Source: an uncultured delta proteobacterium | Lineage (GTDB): Bacteria > Desulfobacterota > Binatia > Binatales > Binataceae | DNA length: 64,000 nucleotides | Assembly (NCBI GenBank): GCA_963744545.1 | Contig: CAVUUH010000036.1 | Coordinates: 141,880-205,879 of the forward strand | Reading direction: 5' to 3' | Shown: positions 38,169-60,232 of the stretch, piece after piece | How the letters are laid out: every line of letters begins with the position of its first letter | How positions within the stretch are numbered: position 1 is the stretch's first letter | The notes under the pieces: generated by a model | Told to the model about the DNA's origin: nothing | Databases searched by the model: none | What the model saw: only the letters and a program-made list of their open reading frames with translations | Position numbers and translations under genes: made by a program

Positions 38169-38282
38169 GCGAACTCTCCCTATGCGGTCATCGCGAGCGC
38201 AGCGAAGCAATCCCGAAGATCAGAGTACCGCCTGATCGAGATTGCTTCGCCGCTGCGCGCCTCGCAATGGCACGGTGTGCCC

Positions 38283-39273
38283 CTACGCCACGTCGCGCTG
38301 CAGTTTCGGGTCGTAATTGGCGTCGTACCAGTAGTCCTGCCACTGGGCGTAGGTAATCGGCGCCCAGCGCGGCGGGTCGCCGGGACCGGTGCAGGTCGGC
38401 AGGCACTCGATCATCTGGTCGAAGCGGGGCCCGAAGAAGAACGGGATCGCGTAGCGGTCGCGCCCGACCGGCGGCACGGCGCGGTGCGGCGTCGATATGA
38501 GGCGGCCGTTGGTCCAGCGATGCAGCATGTCGCCCGAATTGACCGCGAACGAACCCGGGATAAAGGGCACGTCGGCCCAGTCCCCCGATGGCAGGCGTAC
38601 CTGCAGTCCCGGCACCTCGGTCTGCGCCAGAAAGGTCATGAAGTTGCTGTCGGTGTGCGGGGCGATGCCGAATTGGTTGGGCTCGGCGGTGACCGGCGGG
38701 TAATGCGACAGGCGCAACGTGAACTGGCTGTCGGTGAAGGCCTCGTCGAACCAGTCGGGCGGCGAGGTCGAGCGCTGCCGCGACGACCGGCAGAAAGCGC
38801 CGGGCAAACCGTCCATCGCCTCGGCATAGTCGAGCACATAGGCGCGGAAGCCGGGCAGATCGCCCTCCGCCGGCCACAAATTGGGGCCGACAAAGCGGCG
38901 CCCCGACAGGCAGCAGCGGGTCGTCGGGCGGCCGCTCGCGCTTGATGAAAAAGGCCTCGTTGAGGTCGCCCTTGTCGTTGTCGTTGATCTGCGAGGTGCG
39001 CACCGCGTAGCGGCCCATCACCATGTAGCCGTTGTTGTGCTCGTTGAGCTTCAGGGCGAGCTTCTTGTCCATCGGCAACAGGTGAAAGCGCCTCGCCTCG
39101 GCGAAGGTGCGCGCGATCAGCGGCTGCGGCACATCGTGCCCGGTCAGCACGAAGAATCCGACCGTGGTCAGCGCCTCATGCACCGCCCGCGCGGTCGCCG
39201 CCAGAGCGCCCGCCCGGCCGCGCAGCCAGTCGCCGGCATCGATGACGGGAATGGTTGTGGTCATGCTCGACAC
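38283..39273 (-). pseudogene. 2OG-Fe(II) oxygenase (isopenicillin-N-synthase-like) with an apparent frameshift near 38880
   Basis: N-half MSSMTTTIPVIDAGDWLRGRAGALAATARAVHEALTTVGFFVLTGHDVP… is in one frame. C-half …LRLSHYPPV…HTDSNFMTFLAQ…VNSGDMLHRWTNGRLISTPHRAV… is in another. Confidence 0.65.
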
Positions 39274-40128
39274 CTAGCGCGCGATCTGGTGAATCAGCTC
39301 CGCCCAGCGGTCGAGTCGCGGCAGTATTTCGTCGCGCGCCGCCGAGGGCAGCATCACCACGACGCGCGCGATCCCCAGATCGCGGTAACGCGCGAGGCGG
39401 TCGGGTTCCGGAGTGACGCCGAACAGGGTGATCGGCACCGATGCCGGATCGCGGCCGGCTTCCGCCAGCATCTGCCGGAATTTGGGAAGGTATTCGTCGA
39501 TGTCGCCGTAGGGGGCGCGGCCGGTGAACGGCCCCCAGCCGTCGCCGTAGCGGACAGCGCGGCGCGCGGCATGCGGGAAGGCGCCGCCGACGAGGATCGG
39601 CGGGTGCGGCGTCTGCACCGGCTTCGGCCACGCCTTCATCGCCGGGAAATCGACCATTTCGCCGTGATATTCGGCCGTCTCCTTGGTCCAGATTTCCTTC
39701 ATCGCCTCGATGCGTTCGCGCATCAGTTTGAAGCGGCTTTTGAACTCGGTGCCGTGATCGGCCATCTCCTCGGCGTTCCAGCCGCCGCCGACGCCGAACA
39801 GGAAGCGCCCTCCCGAGACCTGGTCGAGCGAGGCCACCAGCTTCGCCGTCTGGATCGGGTCGCGCTGCTGCACCAGGCAGACGCCGGTCGCCAGCCGCAA
39901 TTTCTCGGTCGCGACCGCGGCCGCGGTCAGGCTGACGAATGGGTCCATCGCCTCGTAATAGACCTTCGGCAATTCGCCGCCGCCCGGCCACGGCGAGGCG
40001 CGCGACACCGGGATGTGCGAGTGCTCGGGCGCCCAGACCGACTCGAACCCGCGCGCCTCCAACGCGCGGGCGAGGTCGACCGCCGAGATCGCATAATCGG
40101 TGAAGAACATCAAAGCGCCGAAATCCAT
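39274..40128 (-). CDS. LLM-class (luciferase-like) flavin/F420-dependent oxidoreductase
   Basis: MDFGALMFFTDY…VWAPEHSHIP…RFLFGVGGGWN…. Confidence 0.7.
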   Translation of the reverse strand: MDFGALMFFTDYAISAVDLARALEARGFESVWAPEHSHIPVSRASPWPGGGELPKVYYEAMDPFVSLTAAAVATEKLRLATGVCLVQQRDPIQTAKLVASLDQVSGGRFLFGVGGGWNAEEMADHGTEFKSRFKLMRERIEAMKEIWTKETAEYHGEMVDFPAMKAWPKPVQTPHPPILVGGAFPHAARRAVRYGDGWGPFTGRAPYGDIDEYLPKFRQMLAEAGRDPASVPITLFGVTPEPDRLARYRDLGIARVVVMLPSAARDEILPRLDRWAELIHQIAR

Positions 40129-40633
40129 CCGAACCTCCCGCGTCCGCAACTTCCGGCGGCAGTTTATCGGGTTCGGCGGCGGCGTGGCATCGCTATCTGC
40201 CAAAGGAGCGGTGCGAGGCCGCGTTGCTTCCGGTTTGCGCGGTCGGGTCGGCGCCTTGCGATAGCGCGCATGTCGGATCGCGGCAGAGGACGCCGTTTCC
40301 CGGTTCGGGATCGCCGGCGGGCGGATCGTCGGGCTCCTCCCACGGCTGCATCACCGCCTCGACCGCGTGGTCGCGCGGACCATCGGCGCGAAAAGCGAGG
40401 AGGAACAGCCCGAGCGCCAGCGCGAGCAACAGGACAATCCACGAGGCCAACACCTCGCGGATGGCCGTGCTCGCGAAAAGCGGCCCGGGCTCTCGATCTC
40501 CGGCCATTGGATATACGGCTCCGAAGCGTCCGACGCGGACGGCGGGATACCGTGCATATATGCTGGTTGGGCGGCAGCCGATTGTGAGGTACTTCACGGT
40601 CGGACCCGATCGACATGGAGCGAGGAGGCGGCG

Positions 40634-41445
40634 ATGGGGCAGGTGGACGGCAAGGTCGCGATCGTGACCGGCGGCGCCTCGGGCATCGGCGCGGCCTGCG
40701 CCGCGACCTTGGCGCGCGAGGGCGCCAAGGTGGTGGTGACCGACCTCGACGAGGCGCGCGGCCGGGCCGTGGTCGAGGCGATCGGCGGGGCCGGCGGGAG
40801 GCCCTCTACCTGCAGCAGGACGTGACCCACGAGGAGGGCTGGCCGGGGGTGATCGAAGCGGCCGAGCGGCAGTTCGGGCGTCTCGACGTGATGGTCGCGA
40901 ATGCCGGCATCGGCATCCTGTGCCCGGCCATCGAGATGTCGCTGGCCGACTGGCGGCGGCAGATCGCGGTCAACCTCGACGGCGTGTTCCTGTCGGTCAA
41001 ATACGCGGTGCCGGCCTTGAGCCGCGCCGGCGGCGGCTCGATCGTGATCATGTCGTCGGTCGCCGGGTTGCGCGGGTCGGCCGGCCTCGCCGGCTATTGC
41101 GCGACCAAGGGCGGCGTGCGCCTGTTCGCCAAGGCGGTCGCGATGGAGCACGCGGCCGACCAGATCCGGGTCAACACCGTCCATCCCGGCGTCATCGACA
41201 CGCCGATCTGGACCAAGCTGCCGGCCTCGGCCGGGCACAACGCGCCGATCGATCCGGTCGAGATCGCGCGCGCCGGGGTGCCGCTGGTCCGCGTCGGACA
41301 GGCGCAGGACATCGCCAACGGCGTCCTGTTCCTCGCCTCCGACGCCTCGAATTACATGACCGGCTCGGAACTGGTCATCGACGGCGGCATGACCGGCGGC
41401 GCGCGCTCGCGCTGGGCCGAAACCGGGCGCGCCCGACGAGGCTGA
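40634..41445 (+). pseudogene. SDR-family oxidoreductase with an apparent frameshift near 40800
   Basis: MGQVDGKVAIVTGGASGIGAA… in one frame and …NAGIG…SSVAGL…YCATKGGVRLFAK… in the next. Confidence 0.7.
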
Positions 41446-41746
41446 GGATCACTCACAGAGCCCCCTCCCCGGCCTTCTCCCCGCGTGCGGGAAGAGGGAG
41501 GTCAGTGCTATCATCATCCGGTCAGGGAGAGCGCACGATGCAGCAGGGCCGCGGAGGGTTGGGGAGCCGCAAGCACGGGGTCTCCGGGCATGCCTCGCAG
41601 AGCCCGCGCCTGCGGCTGGCGAAGAAGCTGGCCGCCGAGCGCGGCGAGTATGACAGCGGCAAGCCGCGCCGCCCGCGGCGGCTCGCCTTCGCGACCGTGC
41701 GCGAGGCCTTGCGCGGCGAGGCAAAACCCCGAGGAGGAGGATTTCG

Positions 41747-42430
41747 ATGACGGAGCCGATCTGGAACCAGTTTCTGACCGAGCGCGACAAGGCGGTGTTC
41801 GCCGCCGGCGGGTTCGGCGCCCGCGCCGGCTTCGGCAAGCGGCCGGCGTTGCTCGTCATCGACGTCAACTGGGCGTTCTGCGGCGAGCGGCCGGAGCCGA
41901 TCCTCGAAGTCGATCAAGCGCTGGCACACCTCGTGCGGCGAGGAGGCCTGGACCGCGCTCGAATACATCAAGTGGCTGATCGACCGGGCGCATGCGAAGG
42001 GGCTGCCGGTCATCTACACCACCGGCGAGCGGCGCGCCGACAATTGGGACGGCGGCAGCTGGCGGTGGAAGAGCACGCGCGGCGACGAGGCGGCGAGCAC
42101 CTTCAACCCCGGCATCGACGGCAACGAGATCGTCGCGATGATCGCGCCGGGCCCGCAAGGACATCGTGATCAAGAAGCAGAAGCCCTCGGGCTTCTTCGG
42201 GACCACCCTCGCCTCGTTCCTGACCCTCCTGGGCTGCGACAGCGTCATCGTCGTCGGCACCACCACCTCGGGCTGCGTGCGCGCCACCGCGGTCGACGCG
42301 TTCAGCCACAACTACCGCGTGGTCCTGGCCGAAGAGGGCTGCTTCGACCGCAGCCAGGCGAGCCATGCGCTCAGCCTCTGCGACATGCACGCCAAATACG
42401 CCGACGTCGCTGCCGACGGCCGAGGTGCTC
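41747..42430 (+). pseudogene. isochorismatase-family cysteine hydrolase with at least 3 frameshifts
   Basis: …GKRPALLVIDVNWAF…; …GLPVIYTTG…; …KQKPSGFFGTTLASFLTLLGCDSVIVVGTTTSGCVRATAVDAF… lie in three frames. Confidence 0.6.
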
Positions 42431-42699
42431 GCCTATTTCGACGGGCTGCAGCCCGGACCTCTTCGAGCTGCCGGCGGGGGCGGCGGATCCGCTCAGGCGC
42501 GCCGCCGAATAGCCGGGCGAGGCAGCGCTAAACCGAGGGGCCGAACTCTGAACGGTGATGGCGATCGCCCTGCCGTTGACGGCGCAAGCCTGCTCGAGAT
42601 GAGCGGCGAGATCCTCGAACGTGGTGCCCGCGGGCAGCGCGAACGACAGCGCGCCCGCCTTGAACAACGCCGTAACGCGGCTCGCGGACGGGGCTTTGG

Positions 42700-44833
42700 G
42701 GTTCTCGCGCATCTTTACGCACCATAATGGTTGAAGCACTTCGGAAACGAATCACCGTTTGCGAAGGTTCCCCACCGTGGAAGCGCTCGAACGTTCTCAG
42801 GCCGGGCCGACCTCGACCGGGGTGTCGTTGAAGCAGGCGCCGGTGGCGAGGTCGGCCTTCAGGTCGGCGTCGACCAGGGCCGAGATCGTCTGCCCGGTGC
42901 GGCTGGTCGACAGCCACGCCCCCTTCTCGCTGGCGACGACGCCCGGGCGGCACCGCGTCGGTGACCTGCAGCCGCAGCACGACCTCGCCGCGGTCGTTCC
43001 ACAGCCGCACCTCGGCGCCGGCTTCGAGGCGGCGCTGCGCCGCGTCCTGCGGGTGCATCAGCAGCGGCGGCGCCCGGCGCGAGCCGGCGAGGTGGCCGAG
43101 GGTCGAGGAGATGCGCTTGTCGGAAGCCGGCGAGATCAGCTTCAAGGGATAGGGGGCCGGGCTGTCGCGCCAGGTCGGCAGCAGCGCCGCCTCGCCCCAG
43201 CGCTCGGCCAACACCTCCGATTTCAGCTCGACCTTGCCCGACGGCGTCGACGGGAAGACGTTGTCGAACAGGACCAGCGGCTTGCCGTCCGGCGCCGTCA
43301 TCGGCACGGCCTTGCGGGTCGGGATCTGGCTCGGCCTGAGGCCGCCGAGCCGCGGGTCGGCGCCGTCGACGGCGTCGTCCATCAGCTCGGCGTCGGTCGC
43401 CCGGAAGCACGGCTCGGTGAAGCCGAACCGCGCCGCGAGGCGGCGGAAAATCTCGGTGTTCGGCAACGACTTGCCGACCGGCGGGATGACCGGCTCGGCC
43501 CGCTGCAGCCAGTGATGGCCGTAGGACGGATAGAGCTCGTCGTACTCGAAATGGCTGGCCGCCGGCAGCACGACATCGCAATAAGCCATGCTCTCGGTCA
43601 TCGTCAGCTCGATGCCGACGGCGAACAAATCCTCGCGCGCGAGGCCGCGGCGCATGCGGTTCTGGTCGGGGTGCACGACGATCGGGTTGTGGTTGTAGAT
43701 GAACAGGGCGCGCAATGGCGGGTCGACATCGTCCTCGGCGAGATGCCGGCCGATGTCGTTGATGGTCAGGGTGCGGGTGCCGGCCGGCAGCAGATCCGGC
43801 CGCTGCAGCTTGTCGGGGGTCTTCGGAAAGGCGTTGCCGGCGGCCAGCGCGATGCCGTTGCCCTGGCCGAGCTTGCCGAGCAGCGCCGGCAAGGCGATCG
43901 CGGCGCGGATGCCGCTGCCGCCGTTGCGGCCGCGCTCGAGCCCGTTGCCGGGCGCCAGCACCAGCGGGTCGGCCTCGGCCAGCCAGCGCGCCAGGGTCAG
44001 GATCTGCTCCGGCGGCAGCCCGCAGGCCGCGGCCGCCCGCGCCGCCGGCCATTCCGGGCCCGCGCCATGAACTCGTCGAAACCCAGCACATGGGCGGCGA
44101 TGAAGGCGTCGTCGAGCGCGCCCGGCGCTCGAGCTCGGCGGCAAGCGACCAGGCGAGCAGGACGTCGGTGCCGGGCCGCAATTGCAGGTGCAGATCGGCC
44201 TGCTCGGCGATCTTGGTGCGCAGCGGGTCGATCACGACGAGCCGGCCGCCGGCGCGCTTCGCCTTGCGGATGCTGCGCACCAGATGCAGATTCGCGACCG
44301 TCGCGTTGTTGCCCCAGACGACGTTGAGCTTGGCCTGCTCGGCGAATTCGGGCGGGCAGCCGGGCGCCGCGCCGTAGGTCCCGGCCCAGGCCTCGCTGCG
44401 CACCCCGCCGCACAGGGCGCGCCGGTAGAGCTGGGTGGCGCCGAGCCGGTGGAAGAAGCGCAGCGACATGCTGTCGTAGGCGAGAAGGCCGTGCGGGCCG
44501 GCGTAGTTGAGCGGCATCACCGCCTGCGGCCCCCAGCGGCCGATGACTTCCCCGACCCGCTCGTGGACCACGTCCAGCGCGGCATCCCAGGCGATGCGCT
44601 CGAACTGCCCCGAGCCCTTCGGCCCGGTGCGGCGCAGCGGATGCAACAGGCGCTGCGGTCCGTGCACGAAGGCGGCATGTCGCGCGCCACCTTGCTGCAG
44701 ATGACGCCGGCGGTGTACGGCACCGCGCGCGAGCCGCGCACCTTGACGATCTGGCCGTCATCGACCTAACGCTCAGGCTGCAGGCGTCGGGGCAATCGAA
44801 GGTGCAGACGCTCGGCCGTTCTTCCAGGGCCAT
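42700..44833 (-). pseudogene. molybdopterin-dependent oxidoreductase with an N-terminal 4Fe-4S domain and multiple frameshifts
   Basis: The N-terminus is MALEERPSVCTFDCPDACSLSV. Later segments (…VMPLNYAGPHG…VVWGNNATVANLHL…; …IYNHNPIVVHPDQNRM…TMTESMAYCDVVLPAASHFEYD…LISPASDKRISSTLG…) fall in different frames. Confidence 0.65.
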
Positions 44834-44845
44834 GGGATCCTCCTC

Positions 44846-45277
44846 GCGGCATTCTAGCCGATAAGCCCGGCCGGATGGTACCCATGCCGGAAACCCCTCG
44901 CTTCGGGGCGGAGGAGCGAGCCATTGTCAGCGTCGTTCACGACTCGCCGTCGGCAAGGCCTCGGCCAGCCGCGTCGCTTGGTTGCGCAACCCGTAGGCCA
45001 GCCGGCCGGATCGCCGGAATACCCTTTCTCGAACGGCCGCCCGCGCGGCTTCCCCCGCTTTTGCTGATTCTGCAGCGAATTATCAGCTACCAAGCCCCTC
45101 TCTATTGCGCAAAAATGAACGACTGCGCACCCTTCGGCCTCAATGCCTACCTCCCGCATCAGCAGACGGTGCCGATGCGCGAACTGAACCTTCGATGCGG
45201 CGCCATTATGATAATATACAATTGTTATTAAATCAAGAGGGATCGAGGTCAATTGGTCATCCGCTTCGGTGCAGAGC
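44846..45277. repeat. ~430-bp repeat, copy A; it contains an anomalously AT-rich core (gattatgataatatacaattgttattaaatcaagaggga)
   Basis: About 85% identical to 51838..52268 in direct orientation. It lies between the cfa stop and the Mo-oxidoreductase start. Confidence 0.75.
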
Positions 45278-45382
45278 ACGCGTCACGGTTGGCGGCGGCG
45301 AAGCGCATTCAAATGGCGCTCGATTCAATCAAGCCGGACATCGCGCACAGCTGCGTCAACATCGCCACGATGTGTGCTAAGG

Positions 45383-46681
45383 CTATTTACCCTGCGCGTC
45401 AGCTCCGCAAGGTTCTTCCCGGTTGCCCAGGAAGCTGTTGTTTGCCGAGCTTGGTGGTGCGCTCGATACGCCCGCCCTCGCCTGTACTGGGATCATATCG
45501 CGCACGATCGGCACGGCGTCGTTTCTGGTCGACAAGAGCAGTTGGAAGACCATGTTCGAGCCATTCAGAAAGCCGACTTCGACCGCAGCGAGATAGTATT
45601 CCCACATGCGGCAGAAGCGCTCGTCGGCGAGAGCGGCGACCCGCTCACGGTTGGCGGCGAAGCGCATCCGCCAGTGTCGCAGCGTATGGTAGTAGTGCAA
45701 CCGCAGTACCTCCATATCCGCTACCCATAGCGCAGTACGCTCGGTTGCTGCGAACACCTCGGAGAGCGAGGGGACGTAGGCGCCGGGGAAGATGTATTTG
45801 CGGATGAATGGTCCTGTCGTGCCAGGAGGCAGCATGCGCCCGATGCAATGGACGAAGGCATAACCGTCGTCCTTGAGGAGCGTGCGGATGGTGCCGAAAT
45901 ATTCGTCGAAGTGCCCGATCCCGACATGCTCCATCATGCCGACCGAGACCACGCGATCGAAGCGTCCGGTCAATGCCCGGTAATCCATCTCACGGAATTC
46001 GACGCGGTCCCCCACGCCCGCCTGCTGGGCCCGTTCGCGGGCGACGCGGATCTGTTCTGGCGACACGTTCACCGCCGTGACCCGGGCGCCGGTCGTCGTA
46101 GCGATGTGGATGGCGAACGACCCCCAGCCAGATCCGATCTCAGCCACCGTCATCTCCGGCTGCAGACGCAGCTTCAGCGTTGCACGGCGCAGCTTGTTGG
46201 ATTGCGCCTGTTCCAGGGTGTCGTGCTCGGGGTCTTCGAAAAACGCGCAGGAATAGTTTAGGCCGTCATCGAGAAAGAGACGGTAGATGGCTGTCGAGAT
46301 GTCGTAGTGATGCCGCGCGTTGGCGGCGGCAACTCCTACCGGATTGGCCTGATGCCACCGCTTCGCCGCGCGCCACCAACGACGCAGCAATTTCTGCGTG
46401 CCGTACGCGGCCAGACCGCCACGGTTGAGCGAGAACAGATATATCAGATCGCCGATGCCCGATCCGTCCTCGAAGGTGAGCGTCCCGTTCATGTAGGCCT
46501 CGCCGGCGTGGAGCTCGGGGTTGAGGGCCATCTTGGTATGGAGCGCTCGATCATGAAGTCGAAGCGCCACGAAAGGCCCCGGGCTTTTGCCGTCAAAGAC
46601 GTGTACTCGACCGCCGGCATCGACCAGCCGCAGCGCGCCGACTCGGATGAACTTGGTCAGCAGACTCGAGAGCAGTCGCAT
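45383..46681 (-). CDS. cfa: cyclopropane-fatty-acyl-phospholipid synthase family SAM-dependent methyltransferase
   Basis: Intact 432-aa ORF with the CFA-synthase SAM motif (…VAEIGSGWGSFAIH…) and conserved C-terminal half. Confidence 0.8.
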   Translation of the reverse strand: MRLLSSLLTKFIRVGALRLVDAGGRVHVFDGKSPGPFVALRLHDRALHTKMALNPELHAGEAYMNGTLTFEDGSGIGDLIYLFSLNRGGLAAYGTQKLLRRWWRAAKRWHQANPVGVAAANARHHYDISTAIYRLFLDDGLNYSCAFFEDPEHDTLEQAQSNKLRRATLKLRLQPEMTVAEIGSGWGSFAIHIATTTGARVTAVNVSPEQIRVARERAQQAGVGDRVEFREMDYRALTGRFDRVVSVGMMEHVGIGHFDEYFGTIRTLLKDDGYAFVHCIGRMLPPGTTGPFIRKYIFPGAYVPSLSEVFAATERTALWVADMEVLRLHYYHTLRHWRMRFAANRERVAALADERFCRMWEYYLAAVEVGFLNGSNMVFQLLLSTRNDAVPIVRDMIPVQARAGVSSAPPSSANNSFLGNREEPCGADAQGK

Positions 46682-47779
46682 CGGGTCAAGCGCCGTCGTG
46701 CCATTGGGTCATCGACATCAGATCGTCAGTGACGGGCGACACCGGCACTGGTAGAGCCAACCCAGACCTCTTGAAGGGGCGCCTTATTCCAACATGGGAC
46801 CCCTCCGCTTTCGCCGTGGCAGGTCGGTTGCGCGCACTCCTACCTGTCGACTGCCCGCCACGGAATAAAAGAGCGGAGGTGACGGTCTGGGTGAGCGTGG
46901 AGGTGGTGAACTTTCAGACCACCGAACTCATTCGGCTCGGCTGACCGCATGACGGCGGCCGGATGATCGGCTCGACGGTTCCCCACGCAACTCGGAGACC
47001 GAGATGAAGACGTTATCACCCAAGCCCCGTTAAGGTTCCCTTCCCCGCCGGACAGCTTCAATTGCGTGCAAACGGTAGGCTGAAAACGCGCGTGTCTATC
47101 GTGCAAGGAACGCATAAGATTTACGGGCAAGACGAGGCAGGCCGAGTGACTTGGGTCGAGCACGAGCGGCTCCCTTGGGGATTAGCAGTCCTCGCTGTCA
47201 CTGGTCTGTCGCTGGTCGGCTGGTGGGTGATCCTGATGCCGTTCGCGCGGTGATGCGGCGCCGGCGTCGTTAGTGCCTGATCGGCCCGTCGGTCAGGTTG
47301 GAGCGCCCCCCTCACCCAGCTTCGGGTAAGGCTCGGCTGCACCCAATCCGATGCAACATGATCGGAAACCATTCTAAACCCTAGGGGCGGCCAGTTCGGC
47401 ACTCTCTCGGCTCTACCGACCAGAAGGTGCGGATCGGCGGGCCCCCCGAGGACGAGAGCCGCCCTTGGGGTAAATCTTTCTGATCGGTTTATCTAAGTAT
47501 GGCGTCACCAACACGGCTGCCGAAAGGCTGGCGGACGCGCGCACTGGCCTCACCGGAACGGAAAATCGCCCTCGAAAGCCCGGGGAATCTCGGGAATGTC
47601 GGTTCAGGAATATCCGGGTCGATCCAACGGTCTGCATAGGAGCTAGAAGCGTCTGTCCTGCATCGATGCGTTTTTGGCTGACCGCCTGGGTGTCGCCTTG
47701 GGGACTCGGTTGGTCCTGCTGCTGCACCGTCTGCCACCCAACCACCCAACCAGTGACCCCGCCGCGCAGGTCATCGTCA

Positions 47780-49344
47780 ATGCTCTTCAACGATCCGTTC
47801 TTCCTATTTTGCTTCCTGCCTGCAGTCGGGTGCATTTACGCGGTGGTTGGTCGCCTTGGTGGTGCGCGGACGGTCCTTAGTTTCTTGGTATTTACCTCGG
47901 CCGTGTTCTATGGATGGTGGAATCCGATCTATCTTCCGCTCCTCGGTGGGCTTGCCGTGTTCAATTATGGGCTCGCCCGCAGGATCATGACAGAACGCGA
48001 GCGTCAGCGCGCCCCTTGGGTGCGCTCTCTCCTGACGATCGGCATTGCAGGCGACTTGTCGGTGCTGGCGTATTTCAAATACACGGATTTCTTCATCGAT
48101 ACGGCTAACTCGGTGATCGCCGAGCCGATCCCACTTCAGCACATCGTATTGCCGCTCGGCATTTCGTTCTTCACCTTTCAGAAGATCGCCTACCTGGTGG
48201 ACGCCAGCCGAGGCGAGGTCGAAGATCATGACTTCCTCGAATACTGCTTCTTCGTGATGTTCTTCCCGCAGCTGATTGCTGGCCCGATCGTGCATCACCG
48301 CGAGATCTTCTCGCAAATTCATCGGCCCCACGCTTTTTGCCGGCACCTGGGCCATCTTTCGATCGGCCTGACCATCCTGATGATCGGCTTGTTCAAGAAG
48401 GTGGTTATCGCGGACCGCCTGGCGCCGGTCGTGTCCGAAGTCTTCAGCGCGGCTGCAGTCGGCGAGCCGCTGGACGTCTCTTCGCCTGGCGGGGCGCGGT
48501 CGCGTACTCACTCCAGCTCTATTTCGATTTTTCCGGCTACTCCGACATGGCGATCGGAGCGGCGCGTCTGTTCGGAATTCGCCTGCCCGCTCAATTTCAA
48601 CTCGCCTTATCAGTCGACGAGCATCATCGAGTTCTGGCGGCGCTGGCACATGACCCTGTCGCGCTTCCTGCGCGACTACCTCTACATTCCGCTCGGTGGC
48701 AATCGTCAAGGGAAGCGACGCGCCGCTACGTCAACCTGATGCTCACCATGACGATCGGCGGGCTGTGGCACGGCGCGGCATGGACCTTCGTGTTGTGGGG
48801 GTTCCTGCACGGCATCTACCTCGTCACCAATCACATCTGGCGCCTGGTATGGGTCCCGATTGACCGGTGGTGGTCGCGCGCGGTCGCGCGTCTCGTGACC
48901 CTGGTTGCGGTCGTCATCGCGTTCGTGGTCTTCCGCGCACCCGACCTCCCGACGGCCATGCGCATGTATTACGGGATGGTCGGGCTGCCGCAAAGCATTG
49001 CGTTCGAACCGTCTTTCACGTCGATGCAGCGACTTGCGGCCAATCTCGGCAGCGTCGCTGATCCGAGCGAGTTTGCCCGAACGGTCCTTTGGGCGGTCCT
49101 CGGATTGGCGGTGCTTTGGCTGACGCCCAACACGCAACAACTAATGGCGCTATTTGGGCCGGCTTTCGGCTATGGCCGTCCGAACTTGGAGCGTCAGCCG
49201 CCGGTTCTTGCGAGAATCGGGGCGCTTCAGCCTCTGCTCTGCTGGCGGCCGACGGTGGTTGGGGCGGCGATCATCGGCATTTTGGCAGGGCTCGCCTGTC
49301 TAACCCTCCAGCGCGTCAGCGAATTTATTTATTTCAGTTTTTGA
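47780..49344 (+). pseudogene. MBOAT-family membrane O-acyltransferase (AlgI/DltB-like) with at least 2 frameshifts
   Basis: MLFNDPFFLFCFLP…FKYTDFF…LPLGISFFTFQKIAYLVD…; then other frames carry …YSLQLYFDFSGYSDMAIG…, …FNSPYQSTSIIEFWRRWHMTLSRFLRDYLYIPLGG…, …LTMTIGGLWHGAAW…. Confidence 0.7.
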
Positions 49345-50332
49345 ATGATGGGCCGCCCGCATCAGTTGCTTCGGCGATACCTTGTGATGCTCTTCGCCGT
49401 AATCATCGCAATCGTCGGGGCCTGTCTCGCAATCAACGTGCTGGTCGATCCATTGTGGTATTTCGGTGGCAACGTGGTCACCGGCACCAACTACGCATTC
49501 AACGAGCGCCTCGCGAAGGTGAACCGGTTGCTGCCTCGGTTGAGGCAATACGATTGCCTCATTCTCGGTAGTTCGACCGCCGCGCTTCTCCCCGAAAAGC
49601 GGATCCCGGGGCAGCGCTGCTTCAACCTGCGGATTCTCGGCCGGCGTCGTGTCCGAACTCCTTCTATATGCGAAGTACCTCCGTGCCCGCGGTTTTGGCC
49701 CCGAGCTGTTGATCGTCGGCGTGGATGAGTTCGATTTCGAGGGTCCGACGACCACCCCCAATGTTCCCGAGTTCATCATCGCCGGGAAGGAGCCGCCGCC
49801 CTTCTGGCGCACCTATGTGTCGCTCGATGTTCTCGATTTCTCCTATCGGACTCTGCGAGGCGACTATCCCAATCATCGAATGTTCGGCCGAGATCTGCAG
49901 TCCCACATCATCCCGCGGCGGCGCCCCTACAAGCCGCCAGCACAGCTCGCGGCCGAGGCCAAGCCGACCGAATTCCACCCGGAGCGCGCCGATATGTACA
50001 TCGATCTACGAAGGCTGTTCCCAGAGGCGCGCGCGCTTGGGTTCGTCGCCCCGACCGCAGCCTGGACCATTGCTCAGCTCAGGTTGGACGGGCAGCTCGC
50101 CGCCTATCTCGACGCCCTTCACCGGGTGTCGACGGCATTCGACGAGTTCCTCGACTTCGGCGTCCCGTCCGATATCACGGTCGACACGACGAACACCTTT
50201 GACGGCTTGCATTATATCGATGCGGTGAACGCACACACTCTCGCGGCCCTGCTTTCTGGACAGCCGGCGCCTGGCGTCGATTGGATCGGCAACCGTTTAG
50301 GGAGATTTCAACCGTCTACCAAGACCGAATAG
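49345..50332 (+). pseudogene. MBOAT-partner protein (AlgJ/DltD-like, SGNH/DHHW-type) with an N-terminal TM anchor and a frameshift near 49640
   Basis: Start overlaps the MBOAT stop. TM anchor LVMLFAVIIAIVGACLAINVLV, then …YDCLILGSSTAALLP… (a GDS-like block), with continuation in another frame. Confidence 0.45.
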
Positions 50333-50470
50333 ACCGGCTCGTCTTGGGTCCGAAGCTGCCGTTCAATTGAAGCGCTTTATCTCCCGCCGCAACGTGGCTT
50401 GAACGAGGGAAATGACACCCGGTTGACCGTATTGCTCAGCGAAGACGAAGAGCGGGCTGTACACTTCTGT

Positions 50471-51412
50471 CTATCGGTTGGGCGATGGATGAGCTGCAGC
50501 CAGCGCATGAAGTTCATCGGGCGTGAGTGTCAGTGTGAGCGCGACCGCGTTCTCCTTTACATGCTCCGCCAGCCGGAATTCGGGAATTGCGATGACATTG
50601 CCATTGCGGATGGTCCAGGCCAGCGCAACAGCCGCCGCCGAGCAATCATGTGCAGCGCCGATGCGCGCAAGCGTGGGATCACGCAGCAGGCTGGCGCCGG
50701 CGCCGCCGAGCGGTGAATAGGCCATCACCGGCACGCCATGTTGCTCGCACCATGGCAGCAGGTCATGCTCGATGCCGCGATTGCTGAGGTTGTAGAGCAC
50801 TTGATTGGTCGCGCAACGATCGCCGTGGGGAACACGGAAGAGGTCTTCCATGTCGCCGACCGTGAAGTTGGACACGCCCCAAGCGCGGGCCTTCCCGGCC
50901 GCGCGCAGACCTTCGAACGCCGCGACAACGCCGGAGAGGTCAATGTCCTGCCTAGGCCAGTGCAGCAGGTATAGATCGAAATGATCAGTGCCGAGACGGG
51001 CGAGGCTCGCATCGCAAGCCTGCGCGATGCCGTTACCTGTCACGTGGTCGGGCCACACTTTGGAGACTAGGAATACGCGGTCGCGCTGACCGGCAATCGC
51101 GCCACCGATCAATTTCTCGGAGCGGCCGCCGCCATAAATCTCCGCCGTGTCGATCAGGGTCATCCCGAGCGCAACGCCTGTGCGCAGCGCTTCCTCCTCA
51201 GCGGCCTCCGGACGTCGCCCCTGTGCGAGATTGGCAGAGCCCTGACCGAGCGCCGGGACAATTCTCCCATCCGGAAACTTTACCGTGAGGGAAGCAGTGC
51301 GAGCCGATGCACGCGATGCCGCCACCATCATTGTGCCGACCGAAAAGACCGATGCACCAAGCGCCACCCAAAGCCGATTGAATTCACGCCGGTTCAGCAG
51401 CTGTTCGTTCAT
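50471..51412 (-). CDS. aldo/keto reductase with a twin-arginine (Tat) signal peptide
   Basis: MNEQLLNRREFNRLWVALGASVFSVGTMMVAASRASA, followed by the AKR core (…GMTLIDTAEIYGGG…LGTDHFDLYLLHWP…). Confidence 0.75.
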   Translation of the reverse strand: MNEQLLNRREFNRLWVALGASVFSVGTMMVAASRASARTASLTVKFPDGRIVPALGQGSANLAQGRRPEAAEEEALRTGVALGMTLIDTAEIYGGGRSEKLIGGAIAGQRDRVFLVSKVWPDHVTGNGIAQACDASLARLGTDHFDLYLLHWPRQDIDLSGVVAAFEGLRAAGKARAWGVSNFTVGDMEDLFRVPHGDRCATNQVLYNLSNRGIEHDLLPWCEQHGVPVMAYSPLGGAGASLLRDPTLARIGAAHDCSAAAVALAWTIRNGNVIAIPEFRLAEHVKENAVALTLTLTPDELHALAAAHPSPNR

Positions 51413-51837
51413 GCCGCACTCCCGCATCCCGTTGCCGGTCGTCTTGACGATATGGCCTCCATGCCTTGAACCTGTCGGGGGTATCATTTTGCGGCGTAGC
51501 GTTCTGAGCTGCACCCTCGCTTTGATCAATCGCATGGAGCTTGCGTCGGCCGTATCAGACCGGAGGCTGCTTATCGCCGCACAGCGACGACGGCAAGGGA
51601 CTGCGACAGGTTGAGCCCGCCGGGCTTGAAGTTGGGTGTTGGCGAGTGGCTCATAGGCGCAAAGTGTGACCCGCGCGGTGAGCCCTTCCGATGCGCCTCC
51701 AGCCCTTCTCCCGGCAGCGGAAGTTGCCCACCGTCTGGCCCCGCGAGCGCTTCTCCCCGCCCCTCGCGCGCCGACCGCCATGCGTCCTTTCCCTTTGACG
51801 ACTATGCCGACCTCCGCACGGAGGGTCTGCTCCTGGC

Positions 51838-52268
51838 GCGCATTCTAGCCGATAAGCCCGGCCGGATGGTACCCATGCGGGAAACCCCTCGCTTCGGGGC
51901 GGGAGAGACGAGCCATGCGGCAGCGTCATTCACGACTTGCCGTGAGCAAGGCCTCGGCCAGGCGCGTCGCCTGGTTGCGCAACCCAGGCCAGCCGGCCGG
52001 ATCGCCGGAACGCCCTTACTCGAACGGCCGCCCGCGCGGCTTCCCCCGCTTTTGTTCGTTCCTTGCAGCGAATTATCAGCTACCAAGAACTTTCTCCATT
52101 GCGCAAAAATGAACGACTGCGCACCCTTCGGCCTCGATACCCACCTCCCGCACCAGCGGACGGGGGTCTACTTGCAACCTGAACCTTCGATGCGGCGCGA
52201 TTATGATAATATACAATTGTTATTAAATCAAGAGGGAATTGAGGTCGAATTGGTCGTCCGCTTCGGTG
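51838..52268. repeat. ~430-bp repeat, copy B
   Basis: Direct repeat of 44846..45277 with the same AT-rich core (gattatgataatatacaattgttattaaatcaagaggga). Confidence 0.75.
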
Positions 52269-53302
52269 CAAGAGCAGGAACTGCCACTCGGATAGGGTGG
52301 CGGGCGGCGGAGCCCAGCTTAGCTAAAGATTTGGGCGCGGCCAGAAGATCGAATAGCGATAAGGTGACCAACCGCGCTTGTCCGGCGACCAGGTCAAGCC
52401 CAACCTCACCAACCAAGTCCGTTTTGGCGCGCTCGCATTCAGAAACGCACCAGGCCCGCAGTCCATCTGACACGCCGCGCGCCCGGCCGAGCAACCTTGG
52501 AAAGCTGGCCTTGACCCCCTGGCGAGGCTTGCCCCGACAAGCGCCCTTGCATGGCTGTACAAATCTCGTCATCACTTTGGATGCGGCGGATTATGTTCGG
52601 AAATCCGAGTAGGGATTGGCCTCCCAAAGATCGCCGACGAATTCGGTCGCACCCCGGGCAAGCGCATCCGTGAGCGTATCGGCAGACGACGAGATCGAAG
52701 CAACCTTGTAGTACAAGGGGATCGGGAGTTGGGGGCTTTGTCCCAGCTGCGATCTTAGCGCTTCGAACGTTGAGGTATTCGGCCATCCTTCACAGATGGC
52801 GGCAATCAACCCGGGCGACCTATTTCGGGCTAGTGCCTAGCCGCGCTAGCAGCTCCCGTCTCGGTTTGTTGGTCGCCAGCAAAGTTACGGCCGAGTATTT
52901 CGCCGGCAGTTAGCGCCGCGGTATACGATCCCCAGTTTGTCGGGCCATCGTATCCGAAGCTCTTGATACACATTTCGCGTAAATACCCCGTCCCAGGACG
53001 GGCGCGCTCTATTAGACGGAGTGCTTCGATGACGCCCCATTATGAAACTTCTCTTCGACGATGCGAAGTGCGAGTGCCCTGAACTCGGGCGCACCCTCGA
53101 CATAGCTCGGGAAAATATCAAATACGTCCGGCGGATTGATCTTGAGGGCGGCAAGCGCTTGATCGTCGCCGCCGAAGTGAGCCGCCAAGGCAGGCCATTC
53201 GCTGGCGACGAGCCGTAGCACCTCGTTGTGGTGTCGGAGCCATATGCGTCCGACGCCAGACGACGCGTCGGCGTGATCGAGAAATCGGCAACCGGTTGGT
53301 AA

Positions 53303-56300
53303 TTACCGAAACTGCGAACGCAGCTTGCCGGCGCGAAGTCGAGTTGGGGCCCGATCGCGTTGAGCTCGCAGACGAACCTCGTCAAGGTACTCCTCGCTGA
53401 TTTGGTCTGTCTGCCTGTTGATCCGGGCCAGAGCCATGGACGCCTCAACCGCGATCTGGCCGTCATCCTCAAACCGTGCAGTCGTGATTAACGAGCGGCA
53501 ACTAGGGTCTTGGACGCCACGGCGTGAAAGCTGGCGCAGGACGGAGGACCGCATCTCGACGTCAAGGGGAGCTACAACGGCGAGTACTTTGCGCCGCATA
53601 TCTCCGTTATTGGCAAAAACATCAGCCACGGTCCCCACCTGGCCCCAGCCGCGGCGCAACTGTCGCTCAGCCAGCGCAACCGCGCGAGGATCGCCGCTGA
53701 AGTGCCTTAAAAACCTGCCTGACCTCATTCTCCAGGACGAAACGCTCGCCATCGTAACCGCGGGAAAACACGCGATCCGCCGCCTCGATGTCCGAAGCAT
53801 CAATGCTCAGTTGCCCCAAGCCCTGAAGTGCAAAATCGGCACGAACTTCGTCTCCAGCATCAACTACTTCGAGCAGCAGCTCGCGGCACTGTCGTTTGTC
53901 GTCCATGACAAGTGGCAAGACGTGCGCAACGTCTCGCCGCCGCCTTACAGGAAGCGTCGAAGCTTTTGAAAGAGCGGCAAGCACTTCCGAGTTGTCGGCC
54001 CCCCAGATGTCGATGAGCGCGGAAGCGGCCCAGAAAGCCAAGCTTTGGGGATTGTCGAGGGATTTGAGAAGCAGAGACTTCAGCAAGGGCGTTGGCGCAA
54101 CGTGAGCAATGCCCGCAAAGCCATACGCGTCATCGCGATCTTGCTTCGATGCCCATGCTTCCATCGCCAGACAACGGTGGCATTTCCCTTGAAATGTTTT
54201 GCGAGGGCGGCCAATTCGCCCCGTTCATGGGCGCAGTGAGGATATTGCTGAGAGAAATCCTGAGCCACTAAGGCCGCTACCTCTGTATCGCCCGGGAAAC
54301 CATTGATAAGAAGCCAGTAATCGGGACGACTCCGGCGCGGTCTCAGTCCGTGAATATCGGGTCGCTGACCGGTAGCGTAGGCCTTTAACCGCGGGTCGCC
54401 AGACCAGCCGGAGAGAGGCGCTGCGTTACCGGGACCATTGAACTGATAATCATCTCGGTCGCCAATCTTGGTCAAATAGGCAAAATCATCATCTCCATGC
54501 ACTTTACGGTGAATAGCCACCGATGTCGCCGCCAACCCGATGAGGGGGTGTGCGGAGCGCCGACCATGATCGAGAATCTCATGCAGCTCGGGGAGATCGG
54601 GCCAACCCCGCCAAAGGGCCTCAATCCCAGCCGCGGCGGAGTTGAAGCTTGGAGGCGCCAATACTAAAGCGGATAAGCGCTTGCCGTATTCGGGTTGACC
54701 GCCGTATCGAGTAGCCAATGCTATACCGGCCGCGCGGCTGCCTTCGTAAAATTCGTCATGCAGGCCGCGCCATAGCACGGGCGCAATCCCTTCATCTTAA
54801 GGCTGCCTACCCGGCGATCGCCGCGAAGGCATCTACCAGGCTATAGCTGTGCCAGCGGGGAAACCATTCGGTGAGCTTCTCGCTTACACGCTGCGCCAGT
54901 ACAGTCGATGAAAAGTCCCTCTATCGCATAAGATACTAAGGCATAGCGAGTTGGTGGCAGCCACTTGCTGGTTTCTATCCGGTCGAACGTATCCTCGGCA
55001 AGTTGCTTAAGCTAGCCCCGGCGTCCGCTTGAACTCGCCGAAGGCGATTTCCGCGAGCATACGGTCGCGCATCATCACGACTTCCGGGCCACCATCCATC
55101 TCGTCAATGATCGCGATGAGGCGGTCAATCTCATTCGGCCGCTGCAACTGATACAAAAGGCACAGGACGACCTCGTGCCATCGCGGGTCAGCCGAGCGAG
55201 CCTTAACAAACTCGACTTGCGCATCAAACGAGAGACGGGCCAGATGCTGGGCTGCTAGATATTCCTGGAAGAATCCCGATGAAAAAATCCAATCTCACGC
55301 GGCGATTTCCGCACGAGAATCCCAATTTCTTCCTCGACCAGAGTAACGAGGGAGCGCGCCGTTTGTCGGGCTTCCTGTTCACTCAATCCAACCTGTTGCT
55401 TGAGAACTCTGGCTCACGACATGTGCAGCGCGATCGCTCTCAATGGCGTCTTGCGATGAGGACTCCTCACCGGCTTGTATTGCATTAGCCAGAGCTGCGA
55501 GAAGCCGTCTGCCGTGTGAAGTTGTCCAGTTCATGACGTGGCGACCCTGCCAAAGCCGCCCGATCGCGCGATACCGGGTGTGTCTCGAGTAGAAGCTTGG
55601 TCAGTTCGGCGTAGGCCAGAAAGCGGTTTCGTGGCAGCTGGAGGTTCGCGAGCCTCAGTGCGATAAGTCCCGTGAGCAGGAGTGGAGTGCCACCCAGTTG
55701 GGCAATCGCGCCATTACCCTGGAGTTCCGCAACGAAATCGGCCGCCTGCCGTCGGCTTTGACTGTCGGAGGCTTCACTAGGCGAGCCGTCCAGAATCTGA
55801 ACCATGCCGTCGCCAGATCAATTTGCTGCCTGACCGTCAGAGGAGCGATTTCGGACACCCGCCACGAGCCGTCGAGACCCCCCATTAGTCGATATCCGTG
55901 AGGCCGGCTGGATATAATGACGGGTATGGAACGGCGTGCGGCGAATGCCTGGAGGAGCGTAAGCGCAGTACCAGCCGCCGTCTCATTCTCCCATTCGTCG
56001 ATGCCATCTATGAGCAACAGGAGCCGCTTGTCGTCGAGCGCCTTACGCACCAATACAACCAGCTCGGGCTCGTCCTGTCTCTTGAACCACGCTTTAATAG
56101 CGTCGATAAAGAGAGCTAGGGGTTCCGGTCGCGATCAATTTCGTCCAAAAGGAAAACGACACCCAGACCGGAATGAAGTCCGGCCGGAGGCGGCGCAACC
56201 CGACAAGCTTCGGATCGGCTGACAACATGTCGAGCGCGAGGTATCGAAGGAGCGTGCTCTTCCCACTACCGGCAGGCCCCAACACAACCTCGCGGCTTGT

Positions 56301-57218
56301 GTCGCCGAGCCAGATTTCGAGGGATACTCGCTCGCGTTCCTGACGGAGCCGAGGCTCAGGTCTTGCCGTTCCGACCATTGGCGTCTCAGCGCCTGTTCTC
56401 GGATCGGTTGTGCGAGACGGTGCTTCAGCTTCCTGGCTTGGCGGGACCACATCTCGCGACAGCCAGAAATCGGGAGCCACGTAACGGTCGGCAAGCTGTA
56501 CCGAGATTTTACCGCCGCTCGAAGGCGGCAACCGGCTCAGAACCCCAGGATCGACGCTCGCAAAATGCGACGCGTACAAAGTCCGTGGGAGGTGGCCTTC
56601 AGTTTTTCAGATTTCGATGGGCCGCAGTCGTTCCGCAAGAATTTTGACCGCGTCCGGGCCGCAAAACCGCAGTGCCCATTCGCGTCCGAAAAAATCATCG
56701 ACGATCTCGGGCAGCTCTTTGAGGCGAAGCGAAAGTTCTTCGCCGTCGAGCGGCTCAAATTGAATGGCACGGCCATGAAGCCGGGCACGACATTGCTCTA
56801 TTTTCTCGTCGATATCGGTGGCGCGTAGACTCGCCTGAACGCAGAGCACAAAGCGGTCGCTTTTGGAAGCCCAACGGCCATACCAGAAATTCTGTTACCG
56901 CGGATTCGACCTGCGACGCGAGAATCTCTTGTGGCGCTTGCTTTGCCAGACGGCGTATTTCGGCGTGGATTTACGGCTGACATAGATGTCAATACCGCCC
57001 TGCGCCTGACCCTGGGTACCGTAGAGCCGACACCGCTCGATATCGCCGTCGGTGCGCGCCAGCCTGTGGCAGAGGCGTTCAAAGTTTTGCCAGCTGAGCT
57101 TGCCGAAAGGCAATTCCTGCTCACGCGTCTCAACCGGAGGCGCAATGTGGTCGTCATCGGGAACGTCGAATATCCATGTCGGATCGTCGGTATGGTCCAG
57201 AGCCTTGTCGTCGCTCAT
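53303..57218 (-). pseudogene. bacterial NLR-like STAND NTPase (NACHT domain) with an N-terminal Mrr-type PD-(D/E)xK nuclease domain and a C-terminal repeat region; it is disrupted by at least 8 frameshifts or stops
   Basis: Mrr-like segment …FERLCHRLART…YGTQGQAQGGIDIYVSRKSTPKYAVWQSKRHK. Walker A VVLGPAGSGKSTLLRYLALDM. Walker B LLLIDGIDEW. GTPLLLTGLIAL. Winged-helix signature FFHR(D)FFQEYLAAQHL. The fragments are spread over all three minus-strand frames, and the region has lower GC than its flanks. Confidence 0.7.
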
Positions 57219-57401
57219 GGATTGCGAGCCCTGATTGATCCGGTATATCTCGGATTATGGCCGAGGCGGGCCGACTTGCCCATCTCAAGGCTCACTCTGA
57301 GCGTCGGCTCTGGGGCGAATCCTGCGGTTTGCGACTGGCGCAGCGCGATCCGCCGATCACATGGTCGAGCCGCCTCGCTGGCGCCGCGCCGCGGCGCTTG
57401 C

Positions 57402-58027
57402 TCAATCCATCAGGTGCAGGTTCATGCCGCCGCCGTGCACCTCGGCGAGGTAACCCTTGACCAGGCCCAGTTCGGTGTCGAACTCCATGCGCACCGGCGC
57501 CATCAGCTCGCCGCCGTTCACCAGCGCGTACCAGATCTTGCCGCGGTAGGCGCCTTCGCTGTGGTCCTCGGAGGCGTAGCCGTCGAGGTCCTGGCGGTTC
57601 ACCTCGCACACCCGCACCGGACCGAGAACAGGCGGGCGGCGTCCTCGGGGAGCGGTACCGGCGGGGCATCGGCGAAGCGCAGATCGTAGCGGCGGCGGCC
57701 GTCGAAGACCGGGATCGCGCGCGCACAGCTGCCGCCGCGCGCCAGCGCGCGCTCGAGGATGAAATAGGCCGTCAGCTGATCGACGGTGCCGCGGGTGTGG
57801 TCCGCGGCAACCAATGTCGGACGCTCGGGCGACGGCGAACTGACGGCGCTCAGCACCGCGCCATCGGGGCCGTATTCCACCCGGTTGCGGCGCTCGGCGC
57901 CGTTGCGGCGGGCCGCCCCGGTGTATTCCTCCGGGCGCACCGTGTCGCCGATCAGCTTGCCATGCACCTCGGAGTGGGTTTCCAGGTTGACAAAGACGCT
58001 GGCGAGGCCGCGCGTCGTCAAATCCAT
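57402..58027 (-). pseudogene. conserved hypothetical protein (possibly DUF3108-like) with a frameshift near 57600
   Basis: Two adjacent minus-strand ORF pieces with coherent non-Arg-rich composition (MDLTTRGLASVFVNLETHSEVHGKL… / …YRGKIWYALVNGGELMAPVRMEFDTELGLVKGYLAEVHGGGMNLHLMD). Confidence 0.3.
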
Positions 58028-60162: not shown

Positions 60163-60232
60163 GGCGCCGAACCGTCCGATTTACAATTTCGGGCGCGGTC
60201 GCCAGGACCGCCATGTCAGGAAAGGCGCTCCC

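Follow-up and report, generated by a model that had tools for sequence, protein, structure and literature searches.

Introduction

Insertion sequence (IS) elements may bear outward-facing promoters, and the Correia/CREE-type repeats of Neisseria also carry promoters. Other multicopy units are the small RNA (sRNA) families of Alphaproteobacteria which derive from mRNA 5' ends, while the DUF5681 (Pfam PF18932) cassettes of Alphaproteobacteria and phages are genes that stand by themselves, each behind an AT-rich promoter of the form TTGACA-N17-TAnnnT and a leader of some length. The present work deals with two direct repeats of about 430 bp in a 64,000-nucleotide stretch of DNA from an uncultured delta proteobacterium (contig CAVUUH010000036.1 of assembly GCA_963744545.1, positions 141,880 to 205,879), hereafter called the window. 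Each repeat is read as the truncated and pseudogenised 5' "head" of a DUF5681-family gene cassette, the resulting stubs being most likely captured promoters, or else decaying; the probability given to this reading is about 0.72.

With the DUF5681 cassettes, the window heads have in common a homologous promoter, 5' untranslated region (5'UTR), start codon and first ~50 codons (84% identity in DNA for the intact cassette at metagenome locus L064), while the N-terminal motif RGRPFxKGxSGNPxGRP of the family is still recognisable in them and their AT-rich promoter and long leader recur in the stand-alone cassettes L064, L080 and L096. Like promoter-bearing fragments, IS ends and the Correia/CREE repeats, each head is a short repeated unit with a strong sigma70 promoter, placed immediately upstream of unrelated genes at more than one site, and could plausibly drive these genes. 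Unlike them, the unit derives from the truncated front of a gene and has only 2 copies in 64 kb, and neither a transposase (no search aimed at one was made) nor, on inspection, terminal inverted repeats or target-site duplications came to light. The multicopy sRNA families resemble the heads in forming several paralogous, promoter-bearing intergenic units of ~300–450 nt, one group of heads (class M, see below) being conserved across species. Nevertheless, the heads differ from them in having no Rfam family, defined terminator, excess folding energy or convincing covariation.

The repeat pair and its anatomy

A repeat search of the window gave 7 collinear direct-repeat blocks, with a spacing of 6991–6997 bp and 91–100% identity, spanning 44849-45273 and 51840-52270. 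In a MAFFT alignment evaluated in 50-column bins, copies A and B were ~88% identical with gaps counted, the alignment being unbroken except for 1–2-bp indels. Overall the identity is put at ~88–90%. Both copies are co-oriented, with their sense on the minus strand, and the pair of co-oriented repeats described in an earlier note on this DNA was thus confirmed by search, alignment and profile. The AT-rich core, AATAACAATTGTATATTATCA, occurs exactly 2 times with 3 mismatches permitted, against an expectation of 0.00, and an nhmmer profile of the repeat likewise found 2 copies only, with no third one in the 64-kb window. Outside the window, a BLASTN search of the repeat in "distant" mode against 72,556 plasmids gave no match, the exact repeat motif was not found in the IMG/VR viral contigs, and the repeat 20-mer GGTAGCTGATAATTCGCTGC was present exactly in only 2 GTDB species representatives, both of them uncultured alphaproteobacterial metagenome-assembled genomes (MAGs).

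A relaxed pattern yielded 77 soil-metagenome loci, ~68 of which belong to one family. Two of these are orthologues of the window loci, L003 for copy A (98.5% identity over 4.2 kb) and L069 for copy B (90.6% over 1.6 kb). As a proxy for significance, L003, which is nearly identical to copy A, was compared with copy B, giving E = 1.5e-155 for a 449-nt match of 88.4% identity. The A/B similarity itself covers 44846-45277, and comparison with L069 takes the copy-A unit to ~45301.

Read on the minus strand, each head opens with ~40–65 nt that precede the promoter; a ~108-nt 5'UTR, with a Shine-Dalgarno sequence at its end, then leads to the TTG start, after which come ~47–53 codons and a ~105-nt tail. 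The features are as follows:

44846..45301, minus strand: repeat copy A (head A), the entire duplicated unit, from repeat search, alignment, comparison with L069 and profile
51838..52270, minus strand: repeat copy B (head B), the entire duplicated unit, from repeat search, alignment and profile
45208..45236, minus strand: promoter A, from a promoter scan; -35 TTGATT at 45236-45231, 17-nt AT-rich spacer, -10 TATCAT at 45213-45208
52203..52231, minus strand: promoter B, from a promoter scan; TTGATT, 17-nt spacer, TATCAT, inside a 38-nt block identical to A
45094..45200, minus strand: former DUF5681 5'UTR of copy A, ~108 nt, with boundaries inferred from promoter and start codon
44954..45093, minus strand: DUF5681 N-terminal relic A, TTG at 45093-45091, equivalent to L064 residues 5-51 (tblastn)
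51929..52086, minus strand: DUF5681 N-terminal relic B, TTG at 52086-52084, equivalent to L064 residues 5-57 (tblastn)
44846..44953, minus strand: tail A, ~105 nt, from sequence comparison
51838..51928, minus strand: tail B, from sequence comparison

Transcription of head A would start near 45200. The copy-A 5'UTR contains a hairpin, TGCGCA-N12-TGCGCA, and the Shine-Dalgarno sequence GAGAGGGG stands immediately 5' of the TTG start. The peptide of relic A reads VADNSLQNQQKRGKPRGRPFEKGYSGDPAG up to a 1-nt deletion, which shifts the frame, and continues as RNQATRLAEAL, while the open reading frame (ORF) of relic B is destroyed by 2 nt inserted at codon 8 and by a TAA stop in frame. In tail A, a small hairpin (CCCC-GAAGCGA-GGGG) is followed by TTT, and among the sequences compared only the two window copies and the orthologous loci L003 and L069 have the tail sequence. 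What had been described as a GC-rich conserved leader of ~380 nt is not one RNA element: ~108 nt of it is 5'UTR, and the remainder is ~140–158 nt of decayed coding sequence plus the ~105-nt tail. The suggestion of a duplicated promoter and leader stood, since this is what the unit contains.

Some other assignments were tried and abandoned. A further candidate copy at 53024-53067 (minus strand) was rejected, being just a 24-nt echo of the -10/start region (TTTCATAATGGGGCGTCATCGAAG against the repeats' TATCATAATGGCGCCGCATCGAAG) with the remainder unrelated; it has a promoter-like TTCGCA-17-CATAAT and lies within the NACHT region described below. The reading of TGGCTGATAATTCGCTGC as a sigma54 promoter was discarded, since many members have CG or AG in place of its GG and an ORF begins at this motif. 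That the AT-rich core might be a Fur or Zur site, or dif-like, was also considered and dropped, since the conserved feature is the -35/N17/-10 geometry and the spacer is variable.

Homology with DUF5681 and loss of the coding sequence

At metagenome locus L064, the conserved 16-mer begins an intact ORF of 158 codons, (M)EGVLVADNSLQDQQKRGRPRGRPFEKGCSGNPAGRPLGSRNQATRMAEALLDGEAEALTRK..., whose protein (158 aa) belongs to DUF5681 (PF18932, E = 5.7e-10, 40.1 bits). The DNA of this cassette is 84% identical to copy A and 81% to copy B over 303 nt comprising promoter, UTR and N-terminus. In a tblastn search of the window, the L064 protein matched copy A at 45093-44989 (83% identity, E = 1e-15) and, in another frame, at 44995-44954, and matched copy B at 52063-51929 (E = 5e-13) as well as at 52089-51988. 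The translations of the repeats carry the hallmark N-terminus RGRPFEKGxSGxPAG followed by RNQATRLAEALL, the same as in 34 aligned family members. The frame-corrected copy-A peptide of 55 aa scored 19.1 bits against PF18932 (E = 0.002), under the gathering score of 27.5 bits; the window copies being fragments, their homology to DUF5681 was established by tblastn instead of the Pfam gathering score. Furthermore, both copies have the upstream layout of a DUF5681 cassette, that is, near-consensus -35 and -10 hexamers with a 17-nt spacer in AT-rich sequence, 100–200 nt before the start codon.

No uninterrupted DUF5681 ORF of ~150 aa is present in either copy, the frames being broken by frameshifts and stops and ending after ~codon 55, and nothing similar to the C-terminal two-thirds of the protein was found anywhere in the 64-kb window by tblastn with the L064 protein. 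Copy A, L003 and L069 have in common a 1-nt deletion relative to L064, L003 and L069 show additional stops, and the sites of the lesions differ among the two window copies and these two orthologues. The lesions are seen on Illumina contigs too, and are therefore not artefacts of the window assembly. The earlier note had considered that the repeat might simply be part of a longer segmental duplication including coding sequence, or match a known IS terminus. Dead coding sequence does lie inside the unit, but no longer segmental duplication surrounds it, and no known IS terminus was found to match.

In origin the DUF5681 cassettes, small genes that stand alone, are (pro)phage-associated, and the family is linked to mobile DNA. 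More than 5000 matches were obtained in a protein database search, with no sequence relative in the PDB. The AlphaFold model (mean pLDDT 76) has a poorly modelled, mostly unstructured N-terminus (pLDDT ~50–57), which is Arg/Lys-rich and in which the F..G.SG.P.G motif is invariant; four helices come after it. The protein matched no PADLOC or NCBIfam entry and, in PHROGs, only families of unknown function; in a Salmonella phage, DUF5681 has been listed among the virion-associated proteins (PMC8954984). At L064, a tyrosine recombinase lies 1.3 kb upstream of the intact cassette, and relatives of DUF5681 are found on prophage-like IMG/VR contigs, flanked by an AAA_25 replication ATPase on one side and by tape-measure or TPR genes on the other. 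In a further group of contigs (L088-L095; e.g. L088 3207-4631), an intact DUF5681 gene (P0049) is preceded, at a distance of ~370 nt, by a divergent transposase of the ISNCY family (NF033594, E = 1e-146), which occupies the place of the usual promoter and leader, and the DNA past the transposase varies between contigs.

Duplication and probable exchange between the copies

Relative to the intact gene, A and B have the same break point, and they carry the same tail; it follows that it was an already truncated stub that was duplicated. The identities along the two copies and their orthologues form a mosaic. A 38-nt promoter block is identical in A and B, whereas L069 differs there (31/47 against B). 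Elsewhere, L069, although it stands at the B locus, resembles A more closely than it does window B (matches of 44/49 against 32/50 in one segment, 37/49 against 30/50 in another), and its tail is 97% identical to A and 88% to B. The simplest reading of these identities suggests repeated gene conversion between the paralogues.

The order of events would then be that an L064-like cassette lost everything past ~codon 55 and gained the ~105-nt tail, that the resulting ~450-bp stub was duplicated, and that the two copies later exchanged sequence by gene conversion. The earlier idea of recombinogenic or invertible repeats was in part correct: there are signs of gene conversion, and the repeats stand at junctions of variable or compositionally different DNA, but direct repeats cannot invert the segment between them.

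Promoter conservation and possible capture

The AT-rich core with its sigma70-like -35 and -10 candidates proved, by scanning and by comparison with related heads, to be a genuine, family-conserved promoter of the sigma70 type. When 35 distinct heads were scored on the consensus hexamers, the best promoter reached 9/12 or more in 29 of them and 10/12 or more in 21, with a spacer that is almost always 17 nt and a -35 that is usually a perfect TTGACA. As background, 428 windows of the heads' length were taken from the contigs that carry them, and of these 25 reach 9/12 and none (0/428) reaches 10. Window promoters A and B score 9/12 on this scale. The spacer sequence is variable in the heads, only the -35/N17/-10 geometry being conserved. 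The intact cassettes are built in the same way, L080 with AAATTGACA-N17-TATCAG, a ~200-nt leader and ATG, and L096 with TTGACA-N17, a leader and the start ATG GTC GCT GAT AAT TTC CTG CAA AAA CAG CAA AAA CAG CGG GGA CGC CCA TTT GAG. At the B locus, the promoter sequence of L069 has diverged, yet it is a better consensus, TTGACA-17-TATTAT. Such turnover of the promoter sequence with the consensus kept (window B against L069) is what would be expected if promoter function were under selection despite the dead ORF. Judging from these comparisons, transcription from the heads is probably retained.

Two co-oriented genes follow the heads:

42528..44833, minus strand: molybdopterin oxidoreductase (Mo-oxidoreductase), directly downstream of head A; frameshifted in the assembly, intact (679 aa) on metagenome contigs
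50471..51412, minus strand: aldo/keto reductase with a twin-arginine signal (PF00248, E = 1e-54), the next co-oriented gene past head B

Copy A ends 13 nt before the ATG (44833) of the Mo-oxidoreductase, abutting its ribosome-binding site, which is the arrangement that had been noted previously, and copy B does stand, as had also been said, upstream of the exported aldo/keto reductase, with a gap of ~430 nt. In two relatives (L101 6931-10070 and L102 6923-10046; 84–85% identical protein), the Mo-oxidoreductase is the second gene of an apparent two-gene operon, 12–20 nt behind a 2-hydroxyacid dehydrogenase, and the homology of these relatives with the window starts 2–3 nt before the Mo-oxidoreductase ATG. 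The second position of the gene in the relatives, together with a homology that starts close to the ATG, suggests that it has lost its upstream partner in the window lineage and now stands ~370 nt behind a foreign promoter. No minus-strand terminator-like site was called in 44500-53500, the sole call being on the plus strand at 51464-51480, in the gap between head B and the reductase.

In the mechanism proposed, head A, fused onto the ribosome-binding site of the Mo-oxidoreductase, would give this gene a 5'UTR of ~370 nt, while head B would point at the aldo/keto reductase ~790 nt downstream of its inferred start. With the coding part dead, the promoter would be the remaining functional piece of each stub, and the two promoters, still intact, may now serve the oxidoreductase genes beside them.

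Orphan heads in soil metagenomes

Heads without a gene are not restricted to the window. About 60 metagenome loci (L004-L079; e.g. L061 1106-1385, L012, L020 and L068), corresponding to ~20 genomic sites, carry what are called here "class M" heads, which consist of a strong ATTGACA-N17-TAnnnT promoter, a leader of ~175 nt rich in AACAGC/GCTGTT words, and the start ATG GCT GAT AAT TCG CTG CAA AAA ACA GCA AAA ACA GCC, that is, the first ~14 codons of a DUF5681 gene. No DUF5681 gene body follows the class M heads. Past codon 7 all three reading frames are found, several heads have no ATG, and a convergent gene often ends 50–100 nt downstream. RNAalifold gives only a short long-range helix, GGCTGTT/AACAGCC, with a few compensatory changes. 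The promoters and leaders of these orphan heads look selected from their sequence comparison. Between orthologues, conservation of the promoter and of the leader's 3' half far exceeds that of the flanks. It is a tentative and rather doubtful proposal that the orphan DUF5681 heads (the 2 window copies and the ~20 class M loci) would be portable regulatory units which proliferate in soil Alphaproteobacteria and are maintained by selection. On this doubtful reading each unit would combine a strong promoter with a conserved leader and several codons, and would serve either as an expressed leader-derived RNA, a decoy or sponge for the factor controlling DUF5681 cassettes, or as a mobile promoter module by which the expression of adjacent genes is rewired.

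A related arrangement was observed in two MAGs (L001 7080-7480 and L002 5430-5830, minus strand), where a common intergenic element of ~330 nt lies upstream of an Amidohydro_2 gene and contains the start motif GCTGATAATTCGCTGC...CAGCAAAA (VADNSLQ...) without a DUF5681 body. L001 has in addition a G/C-rich palindromic insert of ~110 nt, at 6985-7092.

Alternative explanations

The heads might be functional non-coding RNA (ncRNA) genes or riboregulatory leaders, their transcript being taken from the leader of the DUF5681 mRNA and acting either in cis on the downstream gene or in trans, for instance as a decoy for a factor controlling DUF5681 leaders. The class M loci speak for this explanation, since the promoter consensus is kept in ~30 distinct orphan heads, many with a convergent next gene and thus nothing downstream to drive, and heads at ~20 different loci are all truncated at ~codon 14. 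Moreover, the 3' half of the leader is 85–97% identical in the L035/L068/L075 orthologues, against 55–70% in the flanks, the class M leader is common to intact genes (nhmmer E = 1e-15 to L096-L100), and its AACAGC/GCTGTT words can pair alternatively, with a few compensatory changes. However, RNAalifold predicts only 13 consensus pairs in class M, nearly all of them invariant, and a terminator after these heads was sought and rejected, stability past the head end giving z-scores which scatter around 0. For the window copies themselves, Rfam gave 0 matches at the gathering score in the whole window and 0 at E <= 5 in an 8-kb region, and in 14 related loci nothing relevant, only chance matches elsewhere. 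Their minimum free energy (MFE) z-scores against dinucleotide shuffles are -0.79 and +0.26, with no excess stability, and a two-sequence RNAalifold shows 2 compensatory changes among 107 predicted pairs, window-type sequences being too few for a real covariation test. In addition, the 5'UTR (alignment columns 100–200) is 60–82% identical to the B-locus orthologue, below the 90.6% of the whole 1.6-kb match. The riboregulator or ~350-nt sRNA gene put forward in the earlier note thus received no positive evidence from the Rfam/Infernal search, folding and covariation checks which that note itself had called for, and an RNA function of the heads is considered improbable. Loss of all activity, with the stubs as pure junk, that is, a duplicated pseudogene fragment in neutral decay, is somewhat easier to entertain, although still unlikely. 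It agrees with the dead ORFs and their different lesions in each copy and orthologue, with a B-locus head no better conserved than its flanks, and with window promoters that score only 9/12; nevertheless, the -35/-10 geometry is kept in A, B and both orthologues despite ~35% change there in L069, the 38-nt promoter block is identical in A and B against an average of 88%, and head A is placed exactly at the ribosome-binding site of a gene.

It is very improbable that a mobile element integrates into, or excises from, the 5' end of DUF5681 cassettes and that the heads are its recombination sites or the scars left at its junctions, in which case the repeats would bracket an acquired 6.5-kb lipid module or would delete it by homologous recombination. 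In keeping with such an origin, head A sits at a step between ~61% GC (cfa side) and ~72% GC (Mo-oxidoreductase side), with a low-GC block at 45.1–57.3 kb; the 5-kb segment that is replaced in L069 breaks off exactly at the 5' edge of head B; and class M homology stops at the head edges, at ~-255 on the left (L071/L047/L004) and ~+65 on the right (L009/L032). The recombinase upstream of the L064 cassette, the ISNCY transposase inserted upstream of another cassette and the DUF5681 relatives on prophage-like contigs point in the same direction. On the other hand, the tyrosine recombinase of L064, used as a tblastn query, has no significant match in the window, where transposases were not specifically searched for, and a split gene found no support, since neither the window nor any head-bearing contig of up to 14 kb yielded a DUF5681 body. 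There is no contig with a deletion or empty-site variant among those found, yet variable DNA abuts head B; neither terminal inverted repeats nor target-site duplications were seen at the unit ends, by inspection only. Such ends, the mere 2 copies in the window and the lack of a match among plasmids are not those of an IS or miniature inverted-repeat (MITE) terminus. In viral contigs, too, there was no exact-motif match. Finally, the tail that A and B have in common outside the cassette indicates duplication of a stub rather than two integration junctions.

Truncated cassette heads, most likely retained as captured promoters, are therefore the preferred explanation, and several facts weigh against it. 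In the comparison with the B-locus orthologue, the 5' part of the head is 62–66% identical against 90.6% overall; the head is not better conserved than its flanks, so that selection on the whole stub is not demonstrated. The ~105-nt tail is not accounted for by the cassette, and its derivation from the dehydrogenase gene that stands before the Mo-oxidoreductase in L101 and L102 was tried and rejected, since local alignments with the 3' end of that 2-hydroxyacid dehydrogenase scored no better than shuffles. L101 and L102 are not syntenic with the window on either flank, only the oxidoreductase being common, and their contexts may be paralogous rather than ancestral. As regards capture, both promoter activity and read-through into the downstream genes are inferred from sequence; copy B ends ~430 nt before the aldo/keto reductase start (about 51409), and read-through from cfa, which is co-oriented with head A and precedes it, could transcribe the Mo-oxidoreductase.

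Genomic context

Between the copies, the earlier note had placed cfa and a pair formed by an MBOAT gene and an SGNH-like partner. The presence of cfa (CMAS, E = 1e-77) and of MBOAT, which is split in the assembly, was confirmed, while the SGNH-like ORF has no Pfam match. The ORF-poor stretch of ~900 bp was also borne out; it lies between cfa and MBOAT (46700-47660), is gene-free on a same-locus JGI contig as well, and shows no Rfam match at E <= 5, no Pfam match for its short ORFs and no head-like sequence.

On the other side of head B lies a segment of different character:

52271..57313, no strand assigned: variable low-GC segment with a NACHT/STAND NTPase, beginning exactly at the 5' edge of head B (comparison with L069)

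In L069 (200-5085) this segment is replaced by an unrelated 4.9 kb, with breakpoints at the head B 5' edge and at ~57313. The replacement encodes two proteins, of 441 and 483 aa, without Pfam, NCBIfam or PADLOC match. The region 52271-57313 is a variable hotspot, possibly of defence type.

The window is a mosaic of GC content, with ~60% in 1-32000, ~70% in 32000-45000, ~60% in 45100-57300 and ~70% in 57300-64000, repeat A falling exactly on one of the steps, which suggests that large parts of the window are of different origin. Several of its genes are split over 2–3 frames, namely the Mo-oxidoreductase (42528-44833), MBOAT (47666-49344), a 2OG-Fe(II) oxygenase (38188-39273) and the NACHT NTPase (52900-56600). 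On same-locus Illumina metagenome contigs the first three are intact, with 679, 520 and 326 aa, respectively, and the splits look like long-read indel error rather than pseudogenisation; indels of the window assembly have therefore to be read with caution.

Concluding remarks

Taken overall, the feature is a rather ordinary one: a relic, perhaps with a captured promoter, that adds one more example to a known kind. Its recognition removes a false lead, since the apparent 380-nt riboregulator turns out to be a duplicated pseudogene stub with a promoter. At the same time, it provides a testable case of promoter capture, in which a Mo-oxidoreductase gene that is promoter-distal in its relatives now lies directly behind a foreign promoter. 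The regulatory architecture of the DUF5681 cassettes, with an AT-rich near-consensus promoter and a long leader, is described here for the first time, and the recurrent class of orphan heads in soil Alphaproteobacteria could represent a new family of regulatory RNAs or of promoter modules.

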